Shown piece after piece: positions 14,792-60,826 of a DNA stretch of 64,000 bases. Within the stretch, counting starts at the first letter, position 1. Each line of letters opens with the position of its first letter. Source of the DNA: a virus (Duplodnaviria > Caudoviricetes); IMG/VR virus record IMGVR_UViG_3300005937_000008, positions 1 to 64,000 of that record; one strand, 5' to 3'. The translations under genes were made by a program, and so were the position numbers. The notes beneath the pieces are model-generated. The model saw only the letters and a program-made list of their open reading frames with translations. It was not told where the DNA came from and made no database searches.

Positions 14792-14830
14792 TTGGCGCCC
14801 ACCGCGACGGGGGGACGCGGTAGGCGCCAA
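14792..14830 (-). terminator. Stem-loop downstream of second recombinase
   Basis: TTGGCGCC(C/T)ACCGCG 15-bp inverted repeat, 9-nt loop, ~25 nt after stop. Confidence 0.6.
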
Positions 14831-14855
14831 GGGCAGTGTGGCATGGGGCGGGTGG

Positions 14856-42770: not shown

Positions 42771-44318
42771 TCAGAACACCGACTCCAGAACGTCGTACTG
42801 GGCTTGTTCGAGCAGATGCGAGCGGGTGACGTAGGACCAGCGGGCCAGCGTCATCGCCACCAGCGGGCTGATGTCGCCCTCCACGCCCTTCACCGTCCAG
42901 GCGATCGTCTCGCCCGTCTGCCGGGTCTTCGCCGAAGCGACCGCCACATCCAGATGCCGGTTCGGCACGACGCGGAAGTTCTCTTCGCGGACCGCCTCCA
43001 GCACCTGGCCAGCCGCCGCCGCCATATCGACCGCGTTCGTCACCGCCAGATCACCCGGCTCCGGCGCCTCGGAATCCTCCGGCCGCTGGAAGCCCGCCTT
43101 GTCCAGCGCGGTCTCGAGGAACGCGAACGTCCCCCGGCCCATGCTGACGGCCACCGGATCCAGCGCATCCCGCAGTTCCATCAGCCGCGGGATCAGCCAC
43201 TTCGTGCCCGGCCGGTAGTCCGCCAGCTGCGTGTGCCCCAGCCCGTCTGCGCGCAGCCCGTACACGCACACCGCGGCATAGTCCCGCAGCGGGCTGATGT
43301 CGACACCGATCGCCACACCTGCCTCGCGGTCCCGCTCCGACGACGCGTCCGCCAGCCGCACCCACGCCCCAGGGTCGATGACCGCATTGCCTTGTGTGAT
43401 CTTCGGCCAGATACACAGCCGCTCCCGCGCAAAACCGGCGTTGCCCATCGAGCGGCGCTCCCGAAGGATCGTCTCCTCCGTCAGCCGCATCCCCAATGCG
43501 GGATTCGACGCCGCCCACAGCCGCCGGTCGTCCAGATCGATGTCATCCAGGTGGTCGAGATCGCCCGCAACCCCCCAGTCCCGCCAGCCGAGACTGTCAT
43601 CGCCGCCCGCATCAGCGCGCCGCTTCAGGTTGAACATGACCTCGCCGGACTCGCCATTCAGCGGCGGCGACGACGTGTAGATGATCTGGGCGTTCGGTCG
43701 GGCCGCCATCGCCGGCATCAACGCGTCCTGCTGCTCCGCCGTGAACGCGAACGACTCGTCAATGATGACCAGATCACCCGAGAAACCACGGCCCGAACCC
43801 TTCGACCGGGCCACGAACTTGATGCGGGCCTCAGTGTCGAGCCTCTCGAAGCCTTCCTCGCCGTTCGTATTGATGAACTTGACGAGGACGCCATCGATAT
43901 CCCACAGGTTCTCGTTGTTCGGATTCACCTGCTTGCCCAGCCGCCGAAGCAGCGTCCGGCAGCGGCGAAAGGCCTCCATCGACGTCTTGTACTCGTGCGC
44001 CGACCACATGATGAGCGACTCATCCAGCAGCAGAAACCCGGCTAGAGCGCGAATCTCCAGAATCGAGCCCTTGCCGTTCTGGCGGGCCACGATCTCGCCG
44101 TACTCGTAACACGCCCACTTGCCGTCATCCCGGCACGCCAACATCAGGTTCACGGCGTCCGCCTGCCACGGATCCGCAACCAGGCCGGCCCGATTCGCCA
44201 GCTCGCACGCCTCCGGCCCCAGCGTGTACTCGTAGGCCGGGGCAAGCTCAACCCTCGGCCTTGCGCCGCCTTTCAGCGATCCGCTTCGAGAGATCCGCGA
44301 CACCCGAACCCCCCGCAA
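42771..44318 (-). CDS. Terminase large subunit (start uncertain)
   Basis: Walker A ARQNGKG; RGFSGDLVIIDE Walker B; YTSS motif III; C-terminal GVDISP..DISPLVA nuclease domain. Confidence 0.93.
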   Translation of the reverse strand: MRGVRVSRISRSGSLKGGARPRVELAPAYEYTLGPEACELANRAGLVADPWQADAVNLMLACRDDGKWACYEYGEIVARQNGKGSILEIRALAGFLLLDESLIMWSAHEYKTSMEAFRRCRTLLRRLGKQVNPNNENLWDIDGVLVKFINTNGEEGFERLDTEARIKFVARSKGSGRGFSGDLVIIDESFAFTAEQQDALMPAMAARPNAQIIYTSSPPLNGESGEVMFNLKRRADAGGDDSLGWRDWGVAGDLDHLDDIDLDDRRLWAASNPALGMRLTEETILRERRSMGNAGFARERLCIWPKITQGNAVIDPGAWVRLADASSERDREAGVAIGVDISPLRDYAAVCVYGLRADGLGHTQLADYRPGTKWLIPRLMELRDALDPVAVSMGRGTFAFLETALDKAGFQRPEDSEAPEPGDLAVTNAVDMAAAAGQVLEAVREENFRVVPNRHLDVAVASAKTRQTGETIAWTVKGVEGDISPLVAMTLARWSYVTRSHLLEQAQYDVLESVF

Positions 44319-44646
44319 TTTCCGCCGGAGCTGGCGCAGACGTTGACGAACCCTTCAAACCCTGCCGAATCTCCGCCACAAGCCCCCGAAGAGCCGTCGC
44401 CTGCTGGCGAGACTCCGCCAAAAACCCCGAGATATCACCGGAGCTGGCCCCGCCTTCTTCGTCATCCGTATTGCCAGGTGAAGCCCAACGCAGGAGAATC
44501 GCGTTCAGCCAATCCAGCCGGTCAGCGAGACGGCACGCCTCCTCCAACAGCACCATGTGCGCCGGAGTCAGAGCCGCAGCCGCCGTCATCTCCCGCCAGA
44601 GCCGCTCGCCCCGATCCCCCAAGTCGGCCGGAGGCGAATCGCTCAT
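44248..44646 (-). CDS. Terminase small subunit (132 aa)
   Basis: LGDRGERLWREM..LLEEACRLADRLD; position. Confidence 0.75.
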   Translation of the reverse strand: MSDSPPADLGDRGERLWREMTAAAALTPAHMVLLEEACRLADRLDWLNAILLRWASPGNTDDEEGGASSGDISGFLAESRQQATALRGLVAEIRQGLKGSSTSAPAPAEIAGGSGVADLSKRIAERRRKAEG

Positions 44647-44649
44647 CGA

Positions 44650-44790
44650 ATCCCCCAGAAATTAAAGGATCTTGCTCCTGAGATTTCCCTGCGGGGGGAG
44701 ATTTTTTTCAGGGGCGTGTGGGGTCAAAGCGAGAGTGGATCAAAAAACGGACATTCCCACCCATGCGTGCACGTTTATGCAGGTCAGAGG
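44650..44790. other. Candidate cos/packaging initiation region
   Basis: Lower-GC non-coding gap between HNH and small terminase with A/T and G/C runs (minus strand AAAAAAATCTCCCCCCG); HNH-TerS-TerL order is typical of cos phages. Confidence 0.5.
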
Positions 44791-45080
44791 CTTGCAGCCC
44801 TCACCGAGTGCACCGCCCTCGGCTTCTTCCTCGCCCTTGCCTGGTTCGACTTGATGGAGTTGCAGCGGCGGTGGGCAAGCCTGCAGTTCGCCCGGTCGAG
44901 TGGGTCGCCGCCCTCCCACAGCTCGCGCACGTGGTCCACGGTTCGGGCCATCGGATGCGTGCGGCCGTCGAGGCTCTGGTCGACCCATTCGCCGCACCAC
45001 CAGCAGTGCGTCTCCTCGGCGTAGACCTGGGCCTGCACGTTCCACCATGCCGTGCCCGCACGTCCCTTGCTGTAGGCCAC
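44784..45080 (-). CDS. HNH endonuclease (98 aa)
   Basis: CWWCG..TVDHV..ANCRLAHRRCNSIK. Confidence 0.88.
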   Translation of the reverse strand: MAYSKGRAGTAWWNVQAQVYAEETHCWWCGEWVDQSLDGRTHPMARTVDHVRELWEGGDPLDRANCRLAHRRCNSIKSNQARARKKPRAVHSVRAASL

Positions 45081-45099
45081 GGCTACCTCCAGGCCTGAG

Positions 45100-45369
45100 C
45101 TACGCCACGCTCCACTGCCCCTGCTCGCCGAGGTAGAGGCAGCACCCGCACCTACTGCACAGAGCAGTGGGTCGCACATCTCCTAGGCCAGTGGTCTCAA
45201 CAGGGCTGTGCTCTAGGCAGGTCCCTGCCTGCCGGAGCCTGATGACGAGTGCTGCAGCGCTACCTGCAGCAGGCTGGATACCCAGCAGGTCATGCTCCAG
45301 TACGGCGATCCTGAGCGGGTTACTGCGCTCCTGCCGTACTGGCTGCTCCTTGCGCCTGAAGGGCCACAT
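45100..45369 (-). CDS. Hypothetical protein (89 aa)
   Basis: ORF track; C-terminal CSRC. Confidence 0.5.
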   Translation of the reverse strand: MWPFRRKEQPVRQERSNPLRIAVLEHDLLGIQPAAGSAAALVIRLRQAGTCLEHSPVETTGLGDVRPTALCSRCGCCLYLGEQGQWSVA

Positions 45370-45378
45370 GCCAGCAGA

Positions 45379-45528
45379 CTACGTGCTGCCCTCTGCAGGG
45401 TCGGTGCCGTAGTCCCCAGCGGCGAGGCGTTCGGGTTGGCGGCAGATGTCCCAGTCGCATGGGCTGCCGGGTTCGTAGTGCCAGCACTGCACTGGCGGGT
45501 CGTCGAGGTCGCCGTCGATGTCTTCCAC
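45379..45528 (-). CDS. Small acidic Cys protein (49 aa)
   Basis: Manual translation MEDIDGDLDDPPVQCWHYEPGSPCDWDICRQP. Confidence 0.45.
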   Translation of the reverse strand: MEDIDGDLDDPPVQCWHYEPGSPCDWDICRQPERLAAGDYGTDPAEGST

Positions 45529-45530
45529 GG

Positions 45531-45662
45531 CTATCTCTGCAGCGTGTGCACGGTGGTCGGCAACAGCCAGAGCGCGAGCCCGGCGTAGGCCAGGCGGTCG
45601 CGCGGCGCGGTGGCGAGCAGCAGGAGGATGACGCCGACCGTGTAGCAGAAGACGTTCAGCAC
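45531..45662 (-). CDS. Small two-TM protein (43 aa)
   Basis: Manual translation MLNVFCYTVGVILLLLATAPRDRLAYAGLALWLL; GGAGGG RBS. Confidence 0.45.
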   Translation of the reverse strand: MLNVFCYTVGVILLLLATAPRDRLAYAGLALWLLPTTVHTLQR

Positions 45663-45672
45663 GAGCCCTCCC

Positions 45673-45918
45673 TCAGGCGGCCTTGGGTGCGCGTTGCGGC
45701 ATGGGCCGGTAGGTGGCGGCCTGTGCCTGCACGTCGGGTAGCGCGTACAGCGTCTTGTATTCGTGGCCTTGCCCGGAGTATTGGTCGGGCCGGCCTTGGA
45801 AGCGGCGGACTTTGCCGCGCCTGGCCCACTGCCGAATCACCGTACCGGGCACGCCGGTTGCTGCCGACGCTTCGTGCTCGTAGACGAGGTCTTCGGGGTA
45901 CAGGTCGGTCACGTTCAC
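45673..45918 (-). CDS. MerR-like HTH protein, possible late regulator (81 aa)
   Basis: EASAATGVPGTVIRQWARRGKV..LYALPDV. Confidence 0.7.
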   Translation of the reverse strand: MNVTDLYPEDLVYEHEASAATGVPGTVIRQWARRGKVRRFQGRPDQYSGQGHEYKTLYALPDVQAQAATYRPMPQRAPKAA

Positions 45919-46058
45919 GCGCACCCCCGTGCATGCAGAAAGCCCCCGGCCGGAAGCTGGGGGCTGTAGTAGCTGCGGACACACGAGTATCCGGATGTGG
46001 GCACTGTGACATACCGCGATCACGTGCGCAAGCGCAAGGCCTGTGCGTGATCCTTCAG

Positions 46059-46712
46059 TTACGCGGCGGTGCGTGTGGCGAGGGGTAGGCCGAGGACTTC
46101 GGTGCGGTCGTATTGGTTGTCGCAGCCGCGGCATCGGGCGCCGGGTGTGGAGACGGTGACGCGGAGGATCGTGCCGCAGGGGCAGGCGACGGCGATGGGA
46201 CGTTCCTTGCGTTCGCCGGTGATCTGCCGGTCGCACTGCCGGACGAGGCTGGTGACCTCCGTGGCGAACTCTCCGAACGCCGGGTGCGAGCTCGCGGCCC
46301 ATTCGAGGTTGACGCGTAGCTGGTAGACGACGCCGTCGAGTTGCTGCTGTAGTCCGCCCTGCCAGCGGGGGTGCCGCCAGCCGAGGTACTCGTGCCAGTC
46401 GACGAGCCAGTCTTGGAGAACGGTGACGACTCCGCCGCGCGCCATGAGGCTGAGGGGTTCGAGGCGGAGCGGGAGCGGGGCGGTGCGCGAGGAGGACACC
46501 ATCACTCCGTCACCGCCGCGACCGGGAACAAGGCGTGTGGCCAACTGGGCGTACAGGCCGTCGGGTCCGGGGAGTTGACGGAGCGCGAGGTCGACGCGGT
46601 CCTGGCAGAGCCGGCATGCCACACGGCCGAGTTCGTCGTGCCGGAGCGGGCGATGACACGCGGCGCATGTCGGCCACACGTAGTCCTCGGCGGGCAGGGT
46701 GCGGTCGTTCAT
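46059..46712 (-). CDS. Multi-zinc-finger phage protein (217 aa)
   Basis: CAAC, CRLC, CPCG, CRGC; typical position upstream of late genes. Confidence 0.65.
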   Translation of the reverse strand: MNDRTLPAEDYVWPTCAACHRPLRHDELGRVACRLCQDRVDLALRQLPGPDGLYAQLATRLVPGRGGDGVMVSSSRTAPLPLRLEPLSLMARGGVVTVLQDWLVDWHEYLGWRHPRWQGGLQQQLDGVVYQLRVNLEWAASSHPAFGEFATEVTSLVRQCDRQITGERKERPIAVACPCGTILRVTVSTPGARCRGCDNQYDRTEVLGLPLATRTAA

Positions 46713-46866
46713 GGTGCGCTCCTTGGCGGCGGTACAGGGAACACGGTGCTGCTGCTGCCAATGGTGCACTAGTCCGTCGACAATCCGGGCCATTGGCCCA
46801 CCTGCCGCCTCCCGCGCATGCCGAAGGCCCCGCCGGGGTGGCGGGGCCTTCGCGTTGCCGCCCGGT

Positions 46867-47076
46867 TCAGGTGGCGGTCGCCTGGGTGCAGGTGTTGGCG
46901 TGGTCCTGTGCCCACTGGATGGCTTGGGCTGTGGCGGTGCCGGTGTCGGTGAGGCTGTCGGCGCCGGCGGTGTAACGGTGTCCGTGGGGGCATTGGGCGT
47001 CGGCGAGCAGGTGGACGGTGACGGCGGTGCAGGCGCCGTTGATCGTTGCGGTCGCGGTAGGGGTGGCGGTGGTCAT
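46867..47076 (-). CDS. Small His/Cys protein resembling AICE transfer-region proteins (69 aa)
   Basis: CPHGH...QWAQDHANTC. Confidence 0.45.
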   Translation of the reverse strand: MTTATPTATATINGACTAVTVHLLADAQCPHGHRYTAGADSLTDTGTATAQAIQWAQDHANTCTQATAT

Positions 47077-47090
47077 GGGTACTCCTTGGG

Positions 47091-47513
47091 CTAGGGCTTC
47101 TTCTTGCCGGGCTTACTGCCGACCTTGGCGTTGACCTTGGATGCGGCCCAGCCGACGGCGACGATGACGCCGACCAGGCAGGCGACGAGCATGGTCAGGT
47201 TCTGGCCGACGGCGCCGATGATCCCGATGAGGGTGCCGCCCATGAGGACGACGATCGCGCACGTGCAGGCGGTGACGGCGACCATCACGAGGACGACCAG
47301 GAACGTGATGATGATGAGGCGCTGCAGGGCAGGGTCGAGGCCCTGCGGCTGCGGCGCCTGCACGATGATCGGGGCCTGGCTGGGCTGCCCGATCACGACA
47401 TGATGCGGTCGGCCGTAGTCGTCGTAGACGACGTTCGGCGGCCGGTGGTGGGCGGGAATGACCGGCTGCTGCCCAAGCACGTCGGGCAGCTGCTCGGGCG
47501 GCAACTGGGTCAT
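47091..47513 (-). CDS. SpdD-like spread protein (140 aa)
   Basis: Pro/Gln-rich N-terminus, two long TM segments, basic tail: the architecture of Streptomyces SpdD-like proteins. Confidence 0.5.
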   Translation of the reverse strand: MTQLPPEQLPDVLGQQPVIPAHHRPPNVVYDDYGRPHHVVIGQPSQAPIIVQAPQPQGLDPALQRLIIITFLVVLVMVAVTACTCAIVVLMGGTLIGIIGAVGQNLTMLVACLVGVIVAVGWAASKVNAKVGSKPGKKKP

Positions 47514-47524
47514 GGCGGGTCTCC

Positions 47525-47794
47525 TTACGGCTTGCAGGTGGGGTAGGCGGCGCCGACTTGGCAGTGCAGATAGGTCGGCTTGGACACTTCGAACCGGTGG
47601 CTGGCACCTTGGGTGTCGCGGGTGGTGAGCCACAGGCGGGCCTTGCAGCGGCCTCCGGTGCAGTCCCACCGGTTGTTCTCGTGGGCGGTGACCATTCCCG
47701 ACGGGCCGACGGCTTCGGGGTTGCAGGTGCCTGCAGTGAGGGCGAGGACGGCGCCAACGGCCGCCAGCCCTACGCGGGCGCGCGTGATTCGCAT
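47525..47794 (-). CDS. Small secreted/lipoprotein-like Cys protein (89 aa)
   Basis: Signal-like MRITRARVGLAAVGAVLALTAGTC; further Cys pairs. Confidence 0.55.
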   Translation of the reverse strand: MRITRARVGLAAVGAVLALTAGTCNPEAVGPSGMVTAHENNRWDCTGGRCKARLWLTTRDTQGASHRFEVSKPTYLHCQVGAAYPTCKP

Positions 47795-47802
47795 CAGGGC
47801 TC

Positions 47803-48132
47803 CTATCGGAATTTACGGGCGGCGGCGTCGGAGCGGCGCACCTTGGCCTTGGCGTCGTTGCGGGCCTTGCGGGCGGCCTGCTTCTCGGGGCCGCGGGCGG
47901 TGCGCAGGGCAACCTCGGCGCGGGCGAGGTCGTCCTCGGCGGCATCGAGGTTGCCGAACGCGATGTGGGCCTGACGGTCGCGGCGTTCCTGCGCCTTGTC
48001 GTAGATGCGGTCGGCACGGTTGCCGTGGCCGCCGTCAGCGGACTCGTGGCCGTTCTTGACGACCTGACGGCCGCCCTTGATGGCGTGGCCGGCGATGCCG
48101 AAGACCTCGCCCCACGTGAACATGCCGGGCAT
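47803..48132 (-). CDS. Basic coiled-coil hypothetical protein (109 aa)
   Basis: ORF track; GGAAGGA RBS. Confidence 0.55.
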   Translation of the reverse strand: MPGMFTWGEVFGIAGHAIKGGRQVVKNGHESADGGHGNRADRIYDKAQERRDRQAHIAFGNLDAAEDDLARAEVALRTARGPEKQAARKARNDAKAKVRRSDAAARKFR

Positions 48133-48320
48133 GGTGGTTTTCCTTCCGGTTAGTGGACTGGTGTGGTTGTGCGGGGTGGTGCGGTCCTGCGTTTGAGGGG
48201 GTCTAGCGGGCCTCTGAGGGCCTGCCTCACCTCGTCACCAAATCGACATTCATGCAGGTCAGTGCAGGTGGGGTACGAATGGTGGGGCGGTCGGTGGAAA
48301 GTCACCGCCCCACCTGCGCC

Positions 48321-50468
48321 TCACCTTGCTTCAGCGGATTCCGTTTCGCGGTTGCCGAGGGCTCGTTGTACGCGCTGGAGGTGCACGACGGGGTAGCCCT
48401 GGTAGACGTTTGTGTCCTCGCCGTGGTCGGTGAGGAGGCGGCGTAGGCGGCTACCGTCCCAGTCGGTGTAGTATGCCGGGTTGAGGTTCTTCAGCCGGTG
48501 CAGGACCTCGGGTGTGCGGACTCGCTCCTGCCCGGACATGACCTGCTCGAGGTCGGCAAGCTCGTCGACGTCTGCGACGGCTTCCAGCTTGTGCAGGGTG
48601 GTGACCTGCCTGCGTAGAGCCTTGGCCCGGTCGGTGATGGCGATGGCTTCGTCGTCGTCGATGAAGTGCGTGCGGACGTTCTCCGACACCTGCCCCTTGG
48701 GCATGTCGATGCCGCTGCCTGCGACGACGAGCTGGCCCTTGTCGATGTCCTGCCGCAGCTTGTGCGGGGCGGCGCCGGCGACCACGGGAGCGTCACCGAG
48801 AGCCATCTTGGCCTGCGACTCGCTGCCTAGGACCAGGGAGGCGCGCAGGTGGTTGCCTTCGCGGGACCGCTTGGGCAGGTTCTGGTCGGTGGGGTCCTGC
48901 GTGCCTTCCCAGATGGTGACGTTGACGGCACGGCCCTGATCGTGGATCTTCTTGACGGCCTGGAAGTACCGTGACGTGGCCTTTTGCCCCCCGTAGGGAG
49001 CCCCGTACTTGACGTTCCCCTTGTCGTCGACGTACTCCTCCCGGGCGCCCGACCCGTAGGCGACCTGGGCTTCGTCGACGATGCAGACCAGCGGATCGAA
49101 CACGGTTCCCGCGGGAGCCAGCAAGCGCCGCTGCATCTCCTCGAAGACGTCCTCGACCATGTGCGTGACGTCCTTGACGTGGTCGTCGGTGGGGCCTTCG
49201 ATGAGGATCGTGGCCAGGCCGAGGAACATTCGCCAGTCGCCGATGCCCTTGAGGTCGCCGATGCGGAACTCGACGGTCGGGTCGAGCGAGAGCCACAGGG
49301 CGAGGGCGCGCAGGGCTGCGGTTTTGCCCTGGTTGGACAGGCCGGTGACCAGGATGTGCTTCTGGTAGAGGCTGACGAGGACGGCATCGCCGCGCAGGCT
49401 GAGGCCCCACGGGGCGCGGCCGCTCTTGTATCTGGCGGTCATCGTGGTGTCGGTGACCAGCGGCGATACAGGCACGGGCTCGTCGAGGGCGCCGGAGTCG
49501 GCGACCCAAAGGCGGACGGTGCGGGGCTGCGGGGCGACGCTGATGTACAGCTCGTGCTCGTGCCGGCCGAGGTTCTCGGCGAGCTTGCGCCGCTTGTTCT
49601 GGATCTCCAGGGTGTCGACGCCGGACGGCAGGTGGACGTCGAGTTCGACGCCGCAGCCTGCGATGGCGATGGGCGACAGCATGGAGGCGCCTGCGTCTTC
49701 CATGTCGATGATGGCCTTGCGCAGGGTGGAAATGCCCAGGTCGCGGAAGGCTTTGACGACGATCGACGGGGTGATGGGCTCGCCGTCGCCGCGCACGCTG
49801 GCGGGGAGCGCCCAGCGCGGGGCGGCCTGGCGTTTGCGGCCGGTGCTCCAGAGTGCGATCAGGCCGAGGGCGGGCCCGAGCATCTTGGCGGCGCCCCATA
49901 CGACGGCGCCGATGAAGAACGCCCAGTCGACCATCTCAAGGAACATGTGGAAGGGAACGAGCACGTCAGCGGCGTTCTCGTTGGCGACGGCGAGGGCGAT
50001 CCCGCCCATGGTGAGCGCGCCGAGGCCGGTGAGGGCGACCGCTCCTGCTGCGCGGGGCGCCTGGCGCATTGCGCCCAGCATGTCCATGCGCCGCTGGTGG
50101 CGGGCCTGCCGGAAGCGGTGGGCGCGCTCTTCCCACTCCTTGGCTTCTTCGGTGTTCCCGACGGCTTCGGCGGCGCGGATGTTGCGGCCGTAGCGGGCGG
50201 TGGTGCGCTCCTCCCAGATGCGCCGCCACGCGATGCGTGCCCCGCCTGCGGTGTAGGCGCCGTGGCGGACGATGATCCGGCATGCGGAGCGGGTGCGTTC
50301 GTCGGTGAGCGCGGCCCGCATCCGTTCGCGTGCACGGCGCCGCTCCGCCTGCTTCTTCGCGACCCGCTCCGGGAGAACCTCGAGGGACGCCTCGGGGGCG
50401 GGCGTCTTGACGAGTTTGAGGGGGCGCTCTTGGCAGTCGTCGAGGGTGCCAGGGATGTCGATAGTCAT
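48321..50468 (-). CDS. TraB-like FtsK/SpoIIIE DNA translocase (715 aa)
   Basis: N-terminal TM segments; Walker A GLSNQGKT; Walker B LVCIVDEAQ; GRA..V...TQDP; C-terminal wHTH-like domain. Confidence 0.85.
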   Translation of the reverse strand: MTIDIPGTLDDCQERPLKLVKTPAPEASLEVLPERVAKKQAERRRARERMRAALTDERTRSACRIIVRHGAYTAGGARIAWRRIWEERTTARYGRNIRAAEAVGNTEEAKEWEERAHRFRQARHQRRMDMLGAMRQAPRAAGAVALTGLGALTMGGIALAVANENAADVLVPFHMFLEMVDWAFFIGAVVWGAAKMLGPALGLIALWSTGRKRQAAPRWALPASVRGDGEPITPSIVVKAFRDLGISTLRKAIIDMEDAGASMLSPIAIAGCGVELDVHLPSGVDTLEIQNKRRKLAENLGRHEHELYISVAPQPRTVRLWVADSGALDEPVPVSPLVTDTTMTARYKSGRAPWGLSLRGDAVLVSLYQKHILVTGLSNQGKTAALRALALWLSLDPTVEFRIGDLKGIGDWRMFLGLATILIEGPTDDHVKDVTHMVEDVFEEMQRRLLAPAGTVFDPLVCIVDEAQVAYGSGAREEYVDDKGNVKYGAPYGGQKATSRYFQAVKKIHDQGRAVNVTIWEGTQDPTDQNLPKRSREGNHLRASLVLGSESQAKMALGDAPVVAGAAPHKLRQDIDKGQLVVAGSGIDMPKGQVSENVRTHFIDDDEAIAITDRAKALRRQVTTLHKLEAVADVDELADLEQVMSGQERVRTPEVLHRLKNLNPAYYTDWDGSRLRRLLTDHGEDTNVYQGYPVVHLQRVQRALGNRETESAEAR

Positions 50469-50471
50469 GGG

Positions 50472-51380
50472 TCAGCTTCCGGTGAGTGCAAGGACGTTGT
50501 CGGAGCCGAGGGCGGCCAGGTCGGGGCGCTCCCGCTCGATCTCGGCGCGCAGCTTCTGGGCGTGCTGGCGGGAGGTGTGCGGGTAGCCGGGCAGGGCAAG
50601 GAGGGCGGCGGTCATCTCGCCCTCGACGGGGCGCCTCTTCTTGCTGTCGTAGAGCGCCTCGATGGCCGCCTTCGCGTCGGCGCGGGAGGCGCTCCGGGGG
50701 CGCTTCGCTGCCGCCTTGCGGGGCGCCTTCTTCGACGCCTTGGGGGCGCTCTGGGGGCGCTCCGGCTTGACGGTTCGGGGCGCCTCGGGGGGCGCTCCGG
50801 GGGCGTCGCTCGGGGCGCTCTGGGGCGTCGTCTCGGGGCGCTCCAGGGCGGGTGCCGGGGGCGCCTCGGGGGCGGCAGTCGGAGCGTCGGCGGGGGCGCT
50901 CTGGAGCGTCTGGTTCGCCTCCACTCGGGGCGCCTCGGGGGCGGCCGGAATGCGGGCGGCGAGAGCGCCGTGCAGCTGCTGCATGAGGGCACCGAACGCA
51001 AGCAGGGCGGCGATCGGCGGGACCGCGGCAACGACGTAGTCCATGGGCTGGGCGTGCGATCCGACACCGGCCACGTTCAGGGCGATGGAGCCGCCGGAGC
51101 CGGCGACGGTGAGGCCGATGGCCCACGGGTCGACGGCCCGGCGCAGGCTCGCCCGCAGGATGAGGACTTCGCCGATGAGGATGAACAGGTCGACGGTTGC
51201 CGGCCACGCCCAGGAGCGGACGGCGGAGTGGCCGAGGCCGTAGCGGGAGGCCACGTCGTGCAGGTGCTCATATGACAGCCAGAAGGCGGCCATGGTGAGG
51301 ATGACGCTGGCGACGGCCGCGATGACGGCGAGCGTCGCGAGGACGTTCGGCTGTTCACGCGGCTCGGTCTGGGTGGTCAC
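50472..51380 (-). CDS. SpdB2-like (DUF2637-type) four-TM spread protein (302 aa)
   Basis: AFWLSYEHLHDVA..WAWPATVDLFI..SIALNVA..VPPIAALLAF; Pro/Ala linker; basic helical C-terminus. Confidence 0.7.
   Translation of the reverse strand: MTTQTEPREQPNVLATLAVIAAVASVILTMAAFWLSYEHLHDVASRYGLGHSAVRSWAWPATVDLFILIGEVLILRASLRRAVDPWAIGLTVAGSGGSIALNVAGVGSHAQPMDYVVAAVPPIAALLAFGALMQQLHGALAARIPAAPEAPRVEANQTLQSAPADAPTAAPEAPPAPALERPETTPQSAPSDAPGAPPEAPRTVKPERPQSAPKASKKAPRKAAAKRPRSASRADAKAAIEALYDSKKRRPVEGEMTAALLALPGYPHTSRQHAQKLRAEIERERPDLAALGSDNVLALTGS
50697..50944 (+). repeat. Strand-polar GGGGCGC(T/C) repeat cluster, clt/TRS candidate
   Basis: 11 exact GGGGCGC at 50697, 50720, 50743, 50754, 50777, 50789, 50812, 50835, 50858, 50893, 50927 in all three reading frames; further copy near 50421. 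Confidence 0.7.
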
Positions 51381-51586
51381 GCGAGCCTCCGGGTGAGGGC
51401 GAGCCACACGGCGGCGGCGAGTCCGATGAAGATCTGGACGGCGGTCTGGGCGAGGAGCAGGGCGGCACCGTGCACGGCGAGGAGTAGGGCTGCCAGGAGC
51501 AGTGAGCCGATCGCTGCGGCCAGGCCGGGGAAGTAGCCGGTGAGGATGAGGAGGGCCGCCAGGAGCGACCAGAGCAGCGCGCGCAT
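51377..51586 (-). CDS. Small hydrophobic Spd-like membrane protein (69 aa)
   Basis: Almost entirely hydrophobic; coupled to SpdB2-like gene. Confidence 0.6.
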   Translation of the reverse strand: MRALLWSLLAALLILTGYFPGLAAAIGSLLLAALLLAVHGAALLLAQTAVQIFIGLAAAVWLALTRRLA

Positions 51587-51612
51587 GGCGGGCTCCCTTC
51601 AGGTAGTGGCGG

Positions 51613-51825
51613 TCAGGCGTGGGCGCGGCGGTAGAAGACGATCTGCATCGGGATGAAGGTGGCGATCGCGGCGGCCAGGGCGGCGCCGGTGATAGCCGCG
51701 TTCGGCAGTCCGGCGGCCGTGCTGGCCCTGTCCGCGATGAACCCGGCGAGGATCGACGCGCCGATGATCAGCAGGGATTGGCGGTACGTGAACTTGTGGG
51801 ACATGAAGGCTCGGAACGTGCGCAT
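51613..51825 (-). CDS. Small two-TM protein (70 aa)
   Basis: MRTFRAFMSHKFTYRQSLLIIGASILAGF... Confidence 0.6.
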   Translation of the reverse strand: MRTFRAFMSHKFTYRQSLLIIGASILAGFIADRASTAAGLPNAAITGAALAAAIATFIPMQIVFYRRAHA

Positions 51826-51917
51826 GACGGCCTCTCTTCGGTGGTGCGGATGGGTGTGTGGTGCTGGCCAGGTCTCCTCACCGCCGGGGGTGCAGGGTCC
51901 GGCGGATCGGGGAACGG

Positions 51918-52076
51918 TCAGCGGACGATCATGTGTTCGGGGTGGCGGCCGCCCATGTGGGCCACGCACTCCGGGCAGTCCTCGCGCCAGCCGAGGTGGC
52001 GGTGCGCGGACCGGTCGTGCGCGTGCCGCCAGCACTGACGGCACTCGCCCCTCGGCGGGTTGTTGGGATCCGGCAT
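51918..52076 (-). CDS. pRL2-8-like zinc-binding plasmid protein (52 aa; missed by ORF track)
   Basis: Manual translation MPDPNNPPRGECRQCWRHAHDRSAHRHLGWREDCPECVAHMGGRHPEHMIVR; recognised from memory as the Streptomyces plasmid pRL2-8 family. Confidence 0.65.
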   Translation of the reverse strand: MPDPNNPPRGECRQCWRHAHDRSAHRHLGWREDCPECVAHMGGRHPEHMIVR

Positions 52077-52081
52077 CGCGG

Positions 52082-54050
52082 TCAGCCCTTCGACTTCCGG
52101 CCGTGCGCCTGGTCGAGGGCCTTGCCGGCTTCCTTGACCTGGCCGGACTTGATGCCGCCGTAGACCTTCTGGCTCTTCGCGACGGCGGCCGGGCTGGTCA
52201 GGTCGGTCTTCTTGTCAGACACGCGGTGTCCTCTCGGATCGGTGGTTGGTGTCGGTGCGTGCCCCGGGCTGCGGTTGAGGCGGCGGCCCAACTTCGGCCT
52301 AGCCGGGGCTGGTTGCCGTGGCGCGGGCGGGGGATGCCCGCACCCGGCGGTCTGGGGGTCAGGCGGCGACCGGGAGTCGCAGCCCGCGCAGCTCGTCGAC
52401 GAGCCGCGGACCCAGCTGGGTGACGTCGTCGACACCGGCGGCCTGGTCGAGGATCAGACGACGCGTCTCCTCGTCGGCGGCAATGAACTGGTCGATCAGA
52501 CGGGCACGGTCCTGGATAGACATGACGGATCACTGACTCTCTCTGGGTGCGCGGGGATGGTGGGGTGGTGCGGGTTGGGCACCGCGGCGGCGGGTGCCGT
52601 GGGGGTGCGGATTTCTCCGCCGCCGCGGCGGTCTATCGGGTGCGGCGGGCTTCGGCGTCGACCTCGGCCTTCAGCCGCCTGGCCGCAGCGACCGCTTCCG
52701 GGCCGCGCCTCTTCGAGCGGCGAAGGTGGTCGGCGGCAGCCAGCTGCTCCGGAGTGCGGCGGATCACTGCTGCTCACCGCCGTCATGCTCGTCGAACACG
52801 GCCAGGAGGTGCGTCACTGCGACTTCCAGCCGGCCGAGGGCACGGGCCGTCGCCTGGCCATCGCCCGCGTCCGTCTGCTCGGCGGCGGCCAGCGCCTCAC
52901 GGGCCTGACCGATGCGGTAGCGGTCGTGGCCGGTCAGCCGGAACGGGGCCCGGTCGCCGACCGGGTCCAGGTCGGCACGGATCACACCGTCCACGCCACC
53001 CCGCCGGAACACTGCCTGCAGCCGGATCGTCCCGTCACTACCGGCCAGCTCGGTGGGGGTGGCGCCCAGGTGTGCGGCCCACGCCTCAAACACCGTGCGC
53101 TCCGACGCGAGGCCGACCAGGCCGCCCGTATCCGTCAACCACCACGCGACCGTCGGCAGACCGTGGTTCTGCTGCGCCTGCAACAAACCACCCAGCTCCG
53201 AGTACGCCAGCCACTGCCGGAACTCCGGACTGTTCGACATCAGCGCACCTCCCCAGCCGGGACAACCACCAGGAACACGTCCTCGTCCAGCAGCATGACC
53301 ACCTCGGCCGGCACACCCTCCATACGGCGGGCGTGCGCGAACTCCTCCGCCGGCCAACTGCCACGCGGGGAACCGGCCGGGAACCGCTCGAGAACGGTGC
53401 GGGCGGTCACCAGTCCTCCCCCGGGATGCGGCCGTCGCGCAGGGCTTCGGCTTCCTCGCGGTACTCCTGGGCGTGCCGCAGGGCGATCGGGACGGTGGCC
53501 GCCGCCTGACGGCGCATGTTGTCGGACAGGGTGGGGTCGTTGGCGGCGGCCTTCGCGGACTCGGCGTTCCGGGCCGAACGGGCCGCGCACTTCTCGCGGT
53601 CGTCGGCCAGCTCGTTCATCTCGCGGCGGGACATGCCGGCCATCACCGACCACCGCCGACCACACGCCGCAGGTCGATGGCGGGCTGACCGAACAGCAGC
53701 GTCGCCCGGCCGGCCAGGCGCACGGTGCGGCCCATCCAGCCCTCAGCCTCAGCCAGGTCCTGCGCGTCAGCGATGATCAGAGCCTTGCCCGTGCCGTCCG
53801 CCGCGGTCATCGTCCCGTACAGGACGTCACCGACGACCGGCGACACGTAGTCGACCTTCACGTCGACGACGAACAGGTGCTCGCCGATCTCATCCGCCAG
53901 CCACACACCCGCGTCCGTGCGGACGTGGCCGTCCGCGTTCAGGTGCGACAAGTAGCGCTCGCGGGCCTCGGGGGTGAACTGGCCCCGAGGACGAGGGGTG
54001 GCCTGGTGATCGACACCCGCACGGGTGCCACTAAGCTCTTGGGTAGCCAC
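52082..54050 (-). other. Leading small ORFs of the transfer operon
   Basis: ORFs 52082-52222 (46 aa), 52359-52523 (54), 52633-52767 (44), 52764-53240 (158), 53240-53410 (56), 53407-53646 (79), 53643-54050 (135), mostly coupled. Confidence 0.6.
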
Positions 54051-54183
54051 AGGGTCTCCTAGATAGAACCTGGTGGTTAGGCCCTGGCCTGGGAGTGGAG
54101 TCCCGGAGCTGGGGCCGTCTTCGTTTGTGGGTGCAGCTGGTGGAGCAGCCGCTGAAGCTTCAGGCGGTGGAGCGCCCTCGGCT

Positions 54184-54262
54184 TCAACACCATCCTGAAG
54201 CTAGTCTGAGCCTGTGTCAACACCCTATTGAGAAGTGGCGCGTTGACTTCTACTCTGGCCTC
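54184..54262. promoter_or_regulatory. Divergent promoter pair controlling transfer operon and regulator/NUDIX operon
   Basis: Minus: TTGACA(54220-54215)-N17-CAGGAT; plus: TTGAGA(54228)-N17-TACTCT(54251), ATG 7 nt later (leaderless); TCAACACC repeated at 54184 and 54217. Confidence 0.65.
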
Positions 54263-54607
54263 ATGACAGATGCGTTCACGGAGTCCCTGGAGGCGAAAGT
54301 CGCCGAAGTTGCAGCCATCGATGACCTGCTTACGCAGGGCCGCGCCGCTCTTGAAGCCCGCCAGAAACTGGCGACGAGCGACCAGGCCCTCTATGTGATC
54401 CAGCAGGCAGCCGTACAAGGGCTGCGCCCAGGGCGCACGTGGGCCGAGGTCGGCGAACTGTTCGGGCGTAGCTATGCCTGGGCGGAAGCCATCGCCAAAG
54501 GGCGAAGTGCGAAACGGGGAAAGAGTGACCATGGCGCCGAGTCAACGCCTCGCGCGGGCGCGGCAGAAGGACACTCCCCCGACATGGAACCGCCAGAAGA
54601 CGAGTAG
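54263..54607 (+). CDS. HTH regulator, Kor-like position (114 aa)
   Basis: GRTWAEVGELFGRSYAWAEAIAKG; divergent from transfer operon. Confidence 0.6.
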   Translation: MTDAFTESLEAKVAEVAAIDDLLTQGRAALEARQKLATSDQALYVIQQAAVQGLRPGRTWAEVGELFGRSYAWAEAIAKGRSAKRGKSDHGAESTPRAGAAEGHSPDMEPPEDE

Positions 54608-54679
54608 CTAGACATCGCGGCGACACCACCCTGTCGCCGCCCCGCCAGACCCGAGCGCCACGAGCACGGGAGCCCGATA

Positions 54680-55318
54680 GTGGACGTCGTAGGGACGTGG
54701 ACAGGCGAAACCGCATGCCTCCTTCAGCAGGCCATGCGGATGACCAACGAGGAGTTCGCCGAACGACTCGGCCTGTCCGATCGGACCATCACCCGGTGGC
54801 ACGCATCACCCGAGATGAGCCACCGACCCGAAGTGCAACAGATCCTCGACACGGCATACGAACAGGCAGGTGAGGCGGTGCAACGACGGTTCGCGCTCTT
54901 GCTGCGCCCCGCTGAGCCGCGCATGGAAGCGCAGGCCCTGCGGGTAGCGATAGCCGTCGTGCTGCGAGATGACGATGTGCTGCTGGTCTGCAGGCGCGGG
55001 GACGGCGAGCTGCGCTGGCAATTCCCGGCCGGCATGGTCAAGCCGGGCGCCGACCCGGCGACGACAGCGGTGCAGGAAACCCACGGCGAGACCGGCGTGC
55101 ACTGCACCATCCGCGAGCACCTCGGCGAACGCATCCACCCGGTGACTGGGGTTATCGCTGAATACCACCTCTGCGATTTCCTGGCCGGCGATGCCACCAA
55201 CCGAGACCCGCTGGAGAACGTAGACGTGACCTGGGTTCCGCGCGCAGCCGTCACCCGCTTCATTCCGCAACACCAGATCTACCCGCCCATCCTGAGCGCC
55301 CTGGAGGTAGCTGCATGA
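54680..55318 (+). CDS. XRE-HTH fused to degenerate NUDIX domain (212 aa)
   Basis: MTNEEFAERLGLSDRTITRW; NUDIX box G-MVKPG-A-DPATTAV-QE-TH-GE-TGV lacks several acidic/Arg residues. Confidence 0.8.
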   Translation: MDVVGTWTGETACLLQQAMRMTNEEFAERLGLSDRTITRWHASPEMSHRPEVQQILDTAYEQAGEAVQRRFALLLRPAEPRMEAQALRVAIAVVLRDDDVLLVCRRGDGELRWQFPAGMVKPGADPATTAVQETHGETGVHCTIREHLGERIHPVTGVIAEYHLCDFLAGDATNRDPLENVDVTWVPRAAVTRFIPQHQIYPPILSALEVAA

Positions 55319-55725
55319 CCGAGACGACGACCGAGAAGCCGGGCATCTCCGCCGCGATCATCGTGAAGGATGGCGCTGTGCTCATGGTTCGGCGCCGCGT
55401 CGGCGAGGGCGAACTGCTCTGGCAGTTCCCTGCGGGCGCGATCGAGCCGGGTGAGGCGGCCACGGACGCGGCGGTGCGCGAGACCGACGAGGAGACCGGC
55501 CTGACGGTGAAGGCGCTGCGCCTGCTCGGCGAGCGCGTGCACCCGAAGACCGGCCGGCTCATGTCGTACACCGCCTGCGAGCCGGTATCCGGCGAGGCCC
55601 GCGTCGCGGACGACGACGAGTTGGACGCGATCGCCTGGGTCTCCCTCGCCGAAATCCCCGACTACGTCCCCTACGGCCTGTACGGGCCGGTGCAGGAGTA
55701 CCTCGACGAGGTGCTCAGCGCGTGA
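55315..55725 (+). CDS. NUDIX hydrolase (136 aa), Pif-like context
   Basis: Canonical G-AIEPG-E-AATDAAV-RE-TD-EE-TGL. Confidence 0.9.
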   Translation: MTETTTEKPGISAAIIVKDGAVLMVRRRVGEGELLWQFPAGAIEPGEAATDAAVRETDEETGLTVKALRLLGERVHPKTGRLMSYTACEPVSGEARVADDDELDAIAWVSLAEIPDYVPYGLYGPVQEYLDEVLSA

Positions 55726-56027
55726 GGGAACACATGTACCGGCCTGACGCCGGGCGTACCAGCCTGTACCGCATCTGCGACGGAAGCGGCCAGTTGCTGT
55801 ACGTCGGGATCGCCACCGACCCGGAGAGGCGCGTCAACGTGCACCGCTGGGATACGACCAAGAAGTGGCGCCGCGAGATCGCCGAGTTCCGTGCGGAGTG
55901 GTTCGACACGCGGTGCGAGGCAGAGAAGGCCGAAGTGTCCGCCATCCGGAGCGAGCGCCCGCTCCACAACCGGAGATACCACCCGGACTACGGCGACGCC
56001 CCGTGGAGTAGCAACACGGCGGCGTGA
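55722..56027 (+). CDS. GIY-YIG nuclease-domain protein (101 aa)
   Basis: SLYRI...LLYVGIATDPERR..H...AEKAEVSAI..ERPLHN. Confidence 0.75.
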   Translation: MREHMYRPDAGRTSLYRICDGSGQLLYVGIATDPERRVNVHRWDTTKKWRREIAEFRAEWFDTRCEAEKAEVSAIRSERPLHNRRYHPDYGDAPWSSNTAA

Positions 56028-56141: not shown

Positions 56142-56444
56142 ATGACTCTAGCGCCTGAGACCTCTGCGGCGCCTGCGGCTTCCGTCACGCCGGATCGCAT
56201 CCTTGACGCCCCACTCAGCCAGCTGCTGACCGAGACGGGTGTCGAGCTCATCGACAGCTCCATCAGTGACCGGGAGTTCTTCGGGGCCGTTGTTCAGCGG
56301 AAGAATGGTGAGCTGCTGCTCACGATGCCGACCGGTCGTAGCGAGCTGGAGCACGACACCGTCGCCCGGTATCTCCTGGCCCAGGTCTTCGACGTCGAAC
56401 TCCCGCAACTGCCGCCGCCGTTCGTCACGACGACTGCGGCCTGA
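56142..56444 (+). CDS. Hypothetical protein (100 aa)
   Basis: ORF track; GAGG RBS; flanked by hairpins. Confidence 0.55.
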   Translation: MTLAPETSAAPAASVTPDRILDAPLSQLLTETGVELIDSSISDREFFGAVVQRKNGELLLTMPTGRSELEHDTVARYLLAQVFDVELPQLPPPFVTTTAA

Positions 56445-56543: not shown

Positions 56544-57068
56544 TTGACTCGTCACCTGCAAGTCGTGCCCGAGTTCAAGGACACGCTCGATCGGCCGGCC
56601 TGGTGGTTCCAGGAGCAGTGGCTGTGGTTCCACACTGACTGGTCGAAGGTCCGCAAGCCGATGACCGAGGAAACCCTGAGGTGGGCCTACGCCCGCGAGG
56701 GCATCCCGTATCCGGACGACGTTCAGCCGGAGCCCGAGCCCTCCATTTCCGTCGACACTCCTCCCCCGCCGCCGAAGCGGAAGGCGGTCACCGCCGAGTC
56801 GCACACTTACCTGATCGAGGCGGAAGGCTCCCACCTGGTGAAGATCGGTATCGCCAGCGATCCGGTGCGTCGACTGCGGGAGCTTCAGACGGGTCAGCCG
56901 ATGGAGCTCCGCTTGCTGTGGTCTATCGCCGGGGACTACGAACACGACTTGCATGTCCACTTCGCCGCCCACCGTGTGCGCGGCGAGTGGTTCGATCTGA
57001 CATCTCTCGGTGATCCGGTAGACGTCGTGAAGGCGGCTGTCGGTGAGATCGAAGTATCGCGCGCGTAG
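56544..57068 (+). CDS. T5orf172/MUG113-type GIY-YIG domain protein (174 aa)
   Basis: YLIEAE..LVKIGIASDPVRRLRELQTG..EHDLH..F..HRVRGEWF. Confidence 0.75.
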   Translation: MTRHLQVVPEFKDTLDRPAWWFQEQWLWFHTDWSKVRKPMTEETLRWAYAREGIPYPDDVQPEPEPSISVDTPPPPPKRKAVTAESHTYLIEAEGSHLVKIGIASDPVRRLRELQTGQPMELRLLWSIAGDYEHDLHVHFAAHRVRGEWFDLTSLGDPVDVVKAAVGEIEVSRA

Positions 57069-59994: not shown

Positions 59995-60327
59995 TCAGGC
60001 TTCGGCTCCGCAGGTGCGGCAGGCGAACCCGGCAGGCGGTTTGTCCATGCAGACGAAGCAGCCGGGCGCGGTGAGGAGTTGCTCAGGGCGGAGCCCGAAC
60101 ACGGCGGCCAGGGCTACGAGGTCGTCGACGATGACGGCGACGGCTGGGCGGTCGGGGTCGCGGTTGCGTTCGATGCGGCCGATGGTGAGGTAGCCGACGG
60201 GTTTGCCTGCGGCCTCGGTCTGACGTCCGACCTCGCGGAGGGACCAGCCGCGTGCGGTGCGCAGGGCGTGGATGTGGGCGCCGACGATGCGGGAGACGGG
60301 GAGGTCTTCGGCGAGACGGGGCGGCAT
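59995..60327 (-). CDS. XRE-HTH protein with C-terminal zinc ribbon (110 aa)
   Basis: IHALRTARGWSLREVG..IGRIER; CFVC..CRTC. Confidence 0.75.
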   Translation of the reverse strand: MPPRLAEDLPVSRIVGAHIHALRTARGWSLREVGRQTEAAGKPVGYLTIGRIERNRDPDRPAVAVIVDDLVALAAVFGLRPEQLLTAPGCFVCMDKPPAGFACRTCGAEA

Positions 60328-60343
60328 CAGGCTGCTTCCTGGC

Positions 60344-60826
60344 TCAGGCGGTGATCGTGTGGACGGTGATTCCGGCGGCTTCGGCGAGCCGCATGCAGCC
60401 GCGGGTGCCGACGTTGCGCTGGCCGGGTTCGGGGAACGCGACCATCCATGCGGGCCGCGGGAGCTTGGCGACCATGCCCGCGTTGCGGCGCGGCCCGGCA
60501 CCGGGGCAGTAGTCGTCGAGCAGGCCGGGGTGAGCGACGTCGCCGGGTTTCTTCCGTCGCCGATGCCCGGGGCCGGGAGGGCAGTTGGGGGCGCAGTTGT
60601 CCCAGTCGGCGGGCATCGGGTCTTCGCTGACGCCGAACCGGCCGCCGAGCTCGTTGACCCAGTCGGAGGCGGCCTGGTCGGCGGAGTGTTCGCCGGGGCA
60701 GGCGCCGTGACGGACGATCACCGGGCCGTCGGCGATGTTGACGGCAATGTCGAACAAGGCGGCGGGGACGACGCCGGGCTCGGTGAGGTGGCGGGAGCCG
60801 GCGAGGAGGATCACGGTGGCGTTCAC
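60344..60826 (-). CDS. SLOG-family (YspA/DUF2493-like) protein (160 aa)
   Basis: ILLAGSR..VRHGACPG..ADQAASDW..PADW..AGPRRNAGMV..VAFP..GTRGCMRLAEAAGI. Confidence 0.75.
   Translation of the reverse strand: MNATVILLAGSRHLTEPGVVPAALFDIAVNIADGPVIVRHGACPGEHSADQAASDWVNELGGRFGVSEDPMPADWDNCAPNCPPGPGHRRRKKPGDVAHPGLLDDYCPGAGPRRNAGMVAKLPRPAWMVAFPEPGQRNVGTRGCMRLAEAAGITVHTITA

Follow-up and report, generated by a model that had tools for sequence, protein, structure and literature searches.

In a 64,000-nucleotide stretch of viral DNA (hereafter the window; positions 1 to 64,000 of IMG/VR record IMGVR_UViG_3300005937_000008, which is 72,266 bases long), we identified a cassette of three plus-strand genes behind a short operator region. 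[quoted passage not shown] The cassette is carried here by a Streptomyces prophage, and in Pseudonocardiaceae by elements that resemble the integrative and conjugative elements of actinomycetes (AICEs). A first-pass annotation of 54263-55725, made from the sequence alone, had been entitled for the NUDIX pair; the same range also contains a third gene, 54263-54607, which that title left unnamed. The features of the cassette are as follows.

54182-54200, plus strand: palindromic operator O2, CTTCAACACCATCCTGAAG, from a repeat search; related loci also have a palindrome of this kind upstream of O1
54217-54231, plus strand: palindromic operator O1, TCAACACCCTATTGA, overlapping a -35-like hexamer, TTGAGA, at 54228-54233
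54251-54256, plus strand: -10-like hexamer TACTCT, 6 nt ahead of the ATG at 54263, read from the sequence
54263-54607, plus strand: small protein of 114 aa, modelled with two helices, a C-terminal HTH and a disordered tail
54617-54640, plus strand: 9-bp inverted repeat GCGGCGACA-N6-TGTCGCCGC, between the small gene and the HTH-pseudoNUDIX gene
54680-55318, plus strand: HTH-pseudoNUDIX protein of 212 aa (GTG start), with an XRE-like HTH (residues 9-75) and a NUDIX fold with a degenerate box, from Pfam, BLASTP and AlphaFold
55315-55725, plus strand: canonical NUDIX hydrolase of 136 aa, whose start overlaps the upstream stop by 4 nt (ATGA)

The dead and live NUDIX proteins and their relatives

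The HTH-pseudoNUDIX protein matches the Pfam NUDIX family (PF00293) at 52.8 bits against a cut-off of 21.1, and its box reads G-MVKPG-A-DPATTAV-QE-T-HGE-TGV, which departs from the active-enzyme signature GX5EX7REUXEEXGU and its metal-binding glutamates through the losses E to A, R to Q, and EE to GE. The protein encoded at 55315-55725 reaches 85.2 bits with the same family (cut-off 21.1), and its box (G-AIEPG-E-AATDAAV-RE-T-DEE-TGL) is canonical and carries the full signature; the first-pass annotation had read both boxes correctly, the three losses exactly. The AlphaFold model of the HTH-pseudoNUDIX protein (predicted local distance difference test, pLDDT, 89.6) has five helices at residues 9-75 and a NUDIX fold at residues 88-210. 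Foldseek matched the model to NUDIX structures with E values of 4e-9 and below, the C-terminal part leading to NUDIX enzymes exclusively, and the closest solved relatives are MutT, Ap4A hydrolase, and similar enzymes. Homologues are named “8-oxo-dGTP diphosphatase” or “NUDIX hydrolase” in the databases, but every NCBIfam match is far under the equivalog cut-off.

The fusion of an XRE-like HTH to the dead copy, proposed in the first-pass annotation, is backed by the five-helix model and by plasmid relatives: residues 4-75 share 40-54% identity with plasmid genes, several of them annotated as XRE regulators and some having other C-terminal domains, while the Pfam HTH matches are all under their cut-offs (HTH_3, E 0.007; Xre-like-HTH, E 0.003; HTH_23 likewise). 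We place the start of the protein at GTG 54680, which has GGGAG 7 nt upstream, because the N-terminal 20 residues from this codon are conserved among homologues; the database gene call (P0003, 192 aa, ATG 54740) is probably too short at its start, to judge from this conservation. There are more than 1000 homologues; the best 120 of them are 78-92% identical (the window's own gene call excluded), and the named ones among these are all from Streptomyces.

The related loci that we compared comprise 33 from viral records and 57 from a scan of species genomes (Streptomyces, Kitasatospora, Amycolatopsis, Lentzea, Actinosynnema, Haloechinothrix, and Actinomadura); box states were scored over 91 loci and linkage to TraB over 90. 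A canonical NUDIX gene directly follows the HTH-pseudoNUDIX gene in all 33 viral loci, whose flanks are mosaic, and the dead/live pair is present in most of the 57 genome loci. The box of the first copy is degenerate in 91/91 loci, and that of the second copy is canonical in all 79 loci where it could be read. Among the first copies, the first glutamate of the box is absent in all loci except one, and the first glutamate of the EE pair is always replaced by G, A, S, D, or R; at the arginine position, most Streptomyces loci have Q or E, and most Pseudonocardiaceae retain R or K. The dead domain has a median pairwise ratio of nonsynonymous to synonymous substitution rates (dN/dS) of 0.23; the corresponding values are 0.32 for the HTH and 0.33 for the live enzyme. 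This ratio for the dead domain, together with its fixed degenerate box, indicates that the domain is maintained by selection and is not decaying, and that the box losses are stable. Invariant non-catalytic motifs are common to both families (W-FP-G, LG-R-HP, Y, G-A--D--E, and W), and the 4-nt overlap of the two genes is retained in 73 of 79 pairs.

The cassette is present in 21 of the 301 Streptomyces species genomes searched (7%), as a single copy in each, and a patchy single-copy spread of this sort is what one would expect for mobile cargo. A search of 50,697 cultured phage records yielded no full-length relative, except one protein with an HTH and a canonical NUDIX domain. This protein, of 210 aa (PP395638.1, “Microcystis phage Mwe-JY05”, at 3935-4567 of our extracted locus), has a MerR/Xis-like HTH; its NUDIX domain groups with the live-domain family, and an annotated immunity repressor lies nearby. 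With 69-78% G+C, the region would be unusual in a Microcystis phage, and a different host of high GC content seems indicated.

When 1.84 billion representative proteins were searched with a profile, which gave 80 clusters at E 1e-30 or better, the dead and live domains proved to occur within one chain as well: in at least 13 of the best 150 clusters, a degenerate box and then a canonical one lie in the same polypeptide. One family of such chains (P0152, P0272, and others) consists of about 300 residues, with an N-terminal transmembrane helix followed by a dead and a live NUDIX domain; at 90% identity it falls into about 28 clusters, which share only 43-58% identity with the query, and its few members with a named source come from metagenome bins of Anaerolineales and Desulfitobacteriaceae. 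In a second group, of about 400 residues and actinobacterial by likeness, an HTH stands ahead of the tandem. The N-termini of natural dead-then-live chains are HTH domains, transmembrane helices, or others. Frameshift artefacts are ruled out as the origin of these fusions, since whole divergent families of single chains exist.

Within the window, the dead and live domains share 39% identity over 122 residues (BLASTP, E 1e-27), with the motifs WQFPAG and LGER(I/V)HPxTG common to both proteins. A maximum-likelihood tree of 57 domains places all 27 first (dead) domains on one side of a branch with support 98/91, and the dead domains of the fused Chloroflexota and Firmicutes proteins lie on the same side. 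Because the dead domains form a single branch, we infer an ancient duplication accompanied by loss of the box, the two halves having been kept together since; the ancient split in the tree rejects a recent tandem duplication. The paralogy put forward in the first-pass annotation therefore stands, but the duplication is ancient and not local.

The overlaps in 73/79 pairs and the natural fusions (Rosetta-stone evidence) suggest one physical dead/live NUDIX complex, and the two proteins probably work as one complex, as far as gene arrangement and sequence can tell. The first-pass annotation had raised the idea of a circuit of reader plus eraser; the overlaps and fusions point to one complex instead of free parts.

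Promoter, operators and the small HTH protein

Upstream of the cassette, the sequence elements are closely packed: TTGAGA is followed by 17 nt, TACTCT, 6 nt, and the ATG at 54263, and a second palindrome lies 33 nt upstream. O1 and O2 are the only two matches to the operator motif in the window. The palindrome TCAA[C/G]-N5-7-TTGA keeps its position in 46 of the 48 distinct loci, and the arrangement TAC[T/C]CT, 5-8 nt, ATG is conserved in 52 loci; the whole layout (palindrome, -35-like hexamer, TAC[T/C]CT, ATG) is kept even where the proteins are only 25-45% identical. This conserved layout points to a leaderless transcript under operator control. A generic consensus promoter scan flagged no promoter at the cassette; the leaderless promoter emerged from the comparison of loci.

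The small protein encoded at 54263-54607 is modelled with a pLDDT of 79, with helices at residues 4-17 and 22-57 and a predicted HTH at residues 60-79. It belongs to no Pfam, PHROG, or NCBIfam family, and Foldseek gave no significant match, with a weak likeness to sigma region 4. A homologue or analogue is found upstream of the pair in most loci. The fifth base of O1 agrees with an Ala/Gln position in the predicted recognition helix of the small protein in every case compared (23 loci with G/Q, 21 with C/A, and 0 discordant), whereas three loci are discordant when the same base is compared with the helix type of the HTH-pseudoNUDIX protein. Since the operator base co-varies with the small HTH protein and not with the HTH-pseudoNUDIX protein, the small protein is the likelier operator binder, and we regard it as the likely, sequence-predicted binder of O1 and O2 and autoregulator of the cassette. 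In the upstream region, which the first-pass annotation had named as a place to look for ligand-dependent binding by the NUDIX proteins, the palindromes (54184-54231) co-vary with the small HTH protein instead.

In three of the loci (L007, L015, and L032), the small HTH gene is replaced, at the same position, by an unrelated small open reading frame (ORF; MPAGIHL ... MNxHINxFLRWL), and the upstream regulator slot thus seems exchangeable. The inverted repeat at 54617-54640, in the spacer between the small gene and the HTH-pseudoNUDIX gene, could be a hairpin or a candidate binding site of the HTH-pseudoNUDIX protein. Across loci the spacer contains one of three repeat types (GACAY with an inverted repeat, four copies of GTGCAG, or GGCAC/GTAC), and the repeat type follows the recognition-helix type of the HTH-pseudoNUDIX protein.

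The host element and its transfer block

The genes of the window that bear on the context of the cassette, outside the cassette itself, are the following.

8206-9498 and 14664-15875: two tyrosine integrases
48321-50468, minus strand: FtsK/SpoIIIE-type TraB-like DNA translocase, from family matches
50472-51407, minus strand: DUF2637 (SpdB-like) membrane protein of the transfer block (Pfam DUF2637, E 4e-12; PHROG 733)
53643-54050, minus strand: protein of 135 aa without a family, from the gene that opens the divergent leftward operon
55722-56027, plus strand: GIY-YIG protein of 101 aa, overlapping the NUDIX stop by 4 nt (Pfam GIY-YIG, 29.6 bits; PHROG endonuclease)
56142-56444, plus strand: protein of 100 aa, downstream of the pair in most window-like Streptomyces loci (tblastn)
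56544-57068, plus strand: T5orf172/MUG113 protein, an accessory gene, the last of the plus-strand island, found after the pair in few loci

The window encodes an amidase, a tape-measure protein, a capsid protein, a prohead protease, a portal protein, and a large terminase, and further to the right there are cytosine and adenine methylases and a DnaB-type helicase. As terminase, portal, capsid, tape measure, lysin, and integrase are all encoded, the element is a tailed prophage; the host of the cassette is thus a Streptomyces tailed prophage and not a plain conjugative element. We do not extend the tailed-phage status to all 33 viral records, because searches with the portal, tape-measure, and terminase proteins in other cassette-bearing records gave matches in only two of five, and the window terminase had no match in five other records that carry the cassette. 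A tRNA-Met adjoins an integrase in the window; it is on the minus strand with its 3′ end directed away from the prophage, so that it may delimit another element on the left and not be the site where this prophage attached. Direct repeats were sought near the tRNA-Met and the integrase, with no useful outcome and no att repeats. Outside the window, in the right arm of the prophage, a gene for a Phd/YefM-type antitoxin (L036:7851-8063, record positions 67851-68063, plus strand) was the only other plus-strand gene noticed.

Between the terminase and the cassette, the minus strand carries an FtsK/SpoIIIE-type gene, a DUF2637 gene, and genes for small membrane proteins. The cassette is divergent from this TraB/Spd block, in which the leftward genes run from 54050 through the DUF2637/SpdB-like gene to the FtsK/TraB-like gene, in agreement with the first-pass annotation, which had described the pair as divergent from a transfer operon. 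Over 92% of its length, the TraB-like translocase shares 54% identity with the FtsK/SpoIIIE protein of NZ_CP108827.1, a 13.5-kb circular record that also encodes an integrase, a small HTH protein, a primase-polymerase, and spdB, and which for this reason looks AICE-like; the translocase had 0 matches in the 50,697 cultured phage records, and in a tblastn search of plasmid L097 TraB was the sole match. The TraB/Spd-type transfer block is genuine although it lies inside a phage. At 42771-54050, this plasmid- or AICE-type block of TraB and DUF2637/SpdB-like genes stands right beside the prophage terminase, and the region may be a phage-conjugative hybrid.

The linkage to transfer genes extends to the related loci. 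An iterative profile search found a TraB-like ORF upstream of the cassette in 60 of the 90 loci: in 58 of them it is divergent and lies 3.5-8 kb upstream on the opposite strand, and in the other two it shares the strand of the cassette. Among the loci that have a full 10-kb flank, about four in five show the linkage. The cassette is also found on 12-kb AICE-like elements without phage genes. For example, an Amycolatopsis locus (L085), which is AICE-like, has the order integrase with GntR domain, second HTH-pseudoNUDIX, TraB, WhiB-like, Xis-like HTH, XRE, pair, and host genes; the Amycolatopsis elements carry such a second HTH-pseudoNUDIX copy. At 1-954 of this locus, which is from Amycolatopsis plumensis, the ORF of the tyrosine integrase runs without a stop into a GntR-type winged HTH, and would be an integrase-Kor fusion if read as it stands.

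In NZ_CP108827.1, a GntR regulator and a YdcF-family protein occupy the equivalent divergent position. On a 186-kb Streptomyces plasmid (L095; NZ_CP027023.1), the region 4469-8653 encodes a relative of the cassette's XRE-like HTH with a different C-terminal domain. Its neighbours are a GntR regulator and an ATP-binding protein to one side, and to the other an isochorismatase-family hydrolase and an FAD oxidoreductase; all of these genes are divergent from a run of unannotated genes. The neighbours in these two records point to a slot beside transfer genes that holds a regulator plus an accessory enzyme, a pattern that korSA-pif of pSAM2 also fits.

Downstream of the pair, the GIY-YIG gene is accessory and outside the core, being present after the pair in few loci only. 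The 100-aa protein encoded at 56142-56444 belongs to no Pfam or PHROG family, and its nearest Atlas clusters are unnamed. The GIY-YIG and T5orf172/MUG113 genes look like mobile nuclease-type passengers, which may explain the local mosaicism.

Comparison with known systems and possible role

The closest parallel is with pSAM2, an AICE of Streptomyces ambofaciens, which is maintained in its integrated state by KorSA and Pif (the pSAM2 immunity factor), the Nudix motif of Pif being required for immunity (PMC2440964, PMC3218068). As with korSA-pif, the cassette joins a regulator, putatively co-transcribed with a small NUDIX protein of intact box, to an integrated element with TraB/FtsK and Spd genes, and an intact-motif NUDIX gene with a regulator on a TraB-type element is what we found here. 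The likeness extends to position, namely a site beside transfer genes, comparable to that of the GntR regulator and enzyme in NZ_CP108827.1. The cassette differs from the pSAM2 pair in having two NUDIX domains, one of them inactive, and in its host element, which also has a full set of virion genes. The comparison with Pif made in the first-pass annotation accordingly fits by position, with the qualification that the host is a tailed prophage.

Like NrtR, the HTH-pseudoNUDIX protein has a DNA-binding domain and a degenerate NUDIX-fold domain in one polypeptide (PMC2330246, PMC9503650), and non-catalytic Nudix domains are known to serve as ligand sensors in regulators (PMC5389931, PMC9503650). 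NrtR proteins are Nudix-related regulators of nicotinamide adenine dinucleotide (NAD) metabolism with ADP-ribose as effector (PMC2330246, PMC9503650). In NrtR, however, the Nudix domain is N-terminal and a winged HTH is C-terminal, whereas here an HTH of another type precedes the NUDIX domain; and the context here is a mobile element and a live paralogous partner, not NAD genes, none of which occurs among the genes near the cassette. NrtR was absent from the 29 PDB sequence matches and from the fold matches listed, and membership of the NrtR family is rejected, the domain order being reversed.

Nudix and XRE genes are common on AICEs (PMC2440964, PMC3218068), and the cassette resembles the mdp-nud-xre clusters of pMEA100, pSE211, Sco5349, and Frankia AICEs, in which a Nudix gene lies beside an XRE-family gene (PMC2440964, PMC3218068). 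Those clusters consist of separate genes together with an HD phosphohydrolase, whereas here an XRE-like HTH is fused to a second, dead NUDIX domain, and no HD-domain match (Pfam) was found in the genes tested between 53407 and 57068. A gene with an HTH and a nudix domain on Streptomyces ICE01 is mentioned in one sentence, with data not shown (Choufa et al. 2022), and that sentence speaks of no degenerate box, partner NUDIX, or TraB link. Thus Nudix and XRE genes on AICEs, conjugal immunity by Pif, and the brief mention of an HTH-nudix gene on a Streptomyces ICE are already known. In the literature searched, we found no description of the universal dead-then-live pairing, the coupling of the two genes, their fusions, or their single origin, nor of the TraB linkage across prophages and AICE-like elements or the operator architecture.

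We read the cassette as a Kor/Pif-type control and immunity module attached to the TraB/Spd transfer block, a reading in which our confidence is evenly balanced. In this reading, the small protein would bind the operators and set expression of the cassette, and the HTH-pseudoNUDIX protein and the active NUDIX would associate, much like a heterodimer, into a complex that has one active site. The nucleoside-diphosphate-X compound that the live partner hydrolyses would also be bound by the dead domain, as suggested by the latter's retention of the substrate-side motifs LG-R-HP and G-A--D--E. Occupancy or turnover of the ligand might then alter how the HTH binds DNA, be it at the cassette or at the divergent transfer operon. 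A signal that would otherwise trigger transfer or induction would be removed by hydrolysis; its removal would keep the element quiet and confer immunity, as Pif does for pSAM2. A bolder proposal, which we think rather unlikely to be right, is that a DNA-tethered dead/live complex would convert the level of a nucleoside-diphosphate-X signal into silence, TraB transfer, or lytic entry, as a switch common to Streptomyces prophages and AICEs.

Several observations weigh against the Kor/Pif-type reading or parts of it. In about 14 loci with a full upstream flank, TraB is missing from these 10 kb. The pSAM2 regulator is a GntR protein, whereas the cassette has a small HTH protein of no known class and a second regulator in which an XRE-like HTH is joined to a dead NUDIX domain; neither HTH protein of the cassette has a GntR match in Pfam. 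Solitary HTH-pseudoNUDIX genes without an adjoining live NUDIX exist (L089-L093, and the second copy in the Amycolatopsis elements), so the complex is not obligatory and the dead protein can act alone. The membrane-anchored fusions imply that the dead/live core needs no DNA binding, and the dead domain may be a mere structural partner of the enzyme and not the sensor of the HTH. The co-variations of the operator and of the spacer could, finally, be explained by physical linkage alone.

As an alternative, the cassette might be the lysis-lysogeny switch of the prophage, with the HTH-pseudoNUDIX protein or the small HTH protein as a CI-like repressor, and with induction triggered by a nucleotide that the live NUDIX keeps low. 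Between the integrase and the right end of the record, where the gene flow is leftward, the cassette heads the main block that is read the other way; its divergent promoter region contains two operators, and no other repressor-like gene was recognised near the integrase. But the operator motif occurs in the window at the cassette's own promoter only, other HTH genes exist in the early region (59995-60501; L036:8364-9362), and the cassette is also carried by the 12-kb elements that lack phage genes. It tracks TraB and not phage modules, as the terminase of the window, unmatched in the five cassette records, illustrates. We therefore hold this alternative to be unlikely, while a role in prophage maintenance overlaps with the Kor/Pif-like reading. 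The remaining explanations (toxin-antitoxin, counter-defence, and housekeeping) are weaker than the Kor/Pif-like reading.

If the cassette were an addiction or abortive module of the toxin-antitoxin kind, the live NUDIX would deplete an essential nucleotide-linked metabolite, and the HTH-pseudoNUDIX protein would neutralise it by heterodimerising and repress the operon. The arrangement is suggestive, with a DNA-binding gene upstream that overlaps the enzyme gene by 4 nt in most pairs (73/79), a paralogous dead partner well suited to the dimer interface of the enzyme, and confinement to mobile elements. Stable single-chain fusions, however, ill fit an antitoxin that has to be degraded in order to free its toxin, the PADLOC match is no better than that of a generic NUDIX, and we know of no NUDIX toxin; this explanation appears quite unlikely.

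The first-pass annotation had also suggested that the proteins destroy nucleotide alarm signals of host anti-phage systems, and we found nothing in support of this, the PADLOC match being a generic NUDIX match. In its wider form, as cargo for counter-defence or defence, the live NUDIX would destroy a host immune nucleotide signal (derived from ADP-ribose, ADPR, or similar) or alter the nucleotide pool against competing phages, and the HTH copy would only regulate. NUDIX genes are frequent in phages, PADLOC gives a weak match to the candidate system PDC-S07, the GIY-YIG and T5orf172 neighbours recall phage accessory islands, and NAD/ADPR conflict systems are among the places where a published survey locates Nudix domains (PMC9503650). 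Yet the conserved neighbour is TraB and not a defence gene, cultured phages have no full-length relative apart from the one HTH and canonical NUDIX protein in the 50,697 records, and the cassette is at home on AICE-like elements that make no virions, all of which leaves this explanation decidedly doubtful. That both proteins are ordinary MutT-type housecleaning enzymes riding on the element is highly improbable: the database names and the closest solved relatives (MutT and Ap4A hydrolase) would agree with it, but every member of the first family has a degenerate box despite purifying selection, this family bears a fused HTH, there is strict retention of pairing and overlap, the NCBIfam matches stay far under the equivalog cut-off, and the distribution (7% of the searched Streptomyces species genomes, single copy) is patchy.

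Conjugal immunity through the Nudix motif of Pif has been known since 2003, and its mechanism and substrate are still open (PMC2440964, PMC3218068). The cassette offers a defined and widespread system for attacking this question, with a probable ligand-binding dead paralogue that could be used for ligand fishing, a live enzyme, candidate operators, and fusions for structural work. The presence of one module in tailed prophages and in small conjugative elements hints at regulatory parts that are common to both lifestyles in actinomycetes, and dead-plus-live NUDIX tandems recur with different anchors, an HTH or a membrane helix. If the proposed switch common to prophages and AICEs exists, conjugal immunity of the Pif kind and lysogenic maintenance would be two forms of one nucleotide-signal mechanism, and this signalling device would have another branch in the membrane-anchored fused relatives from other phyla.

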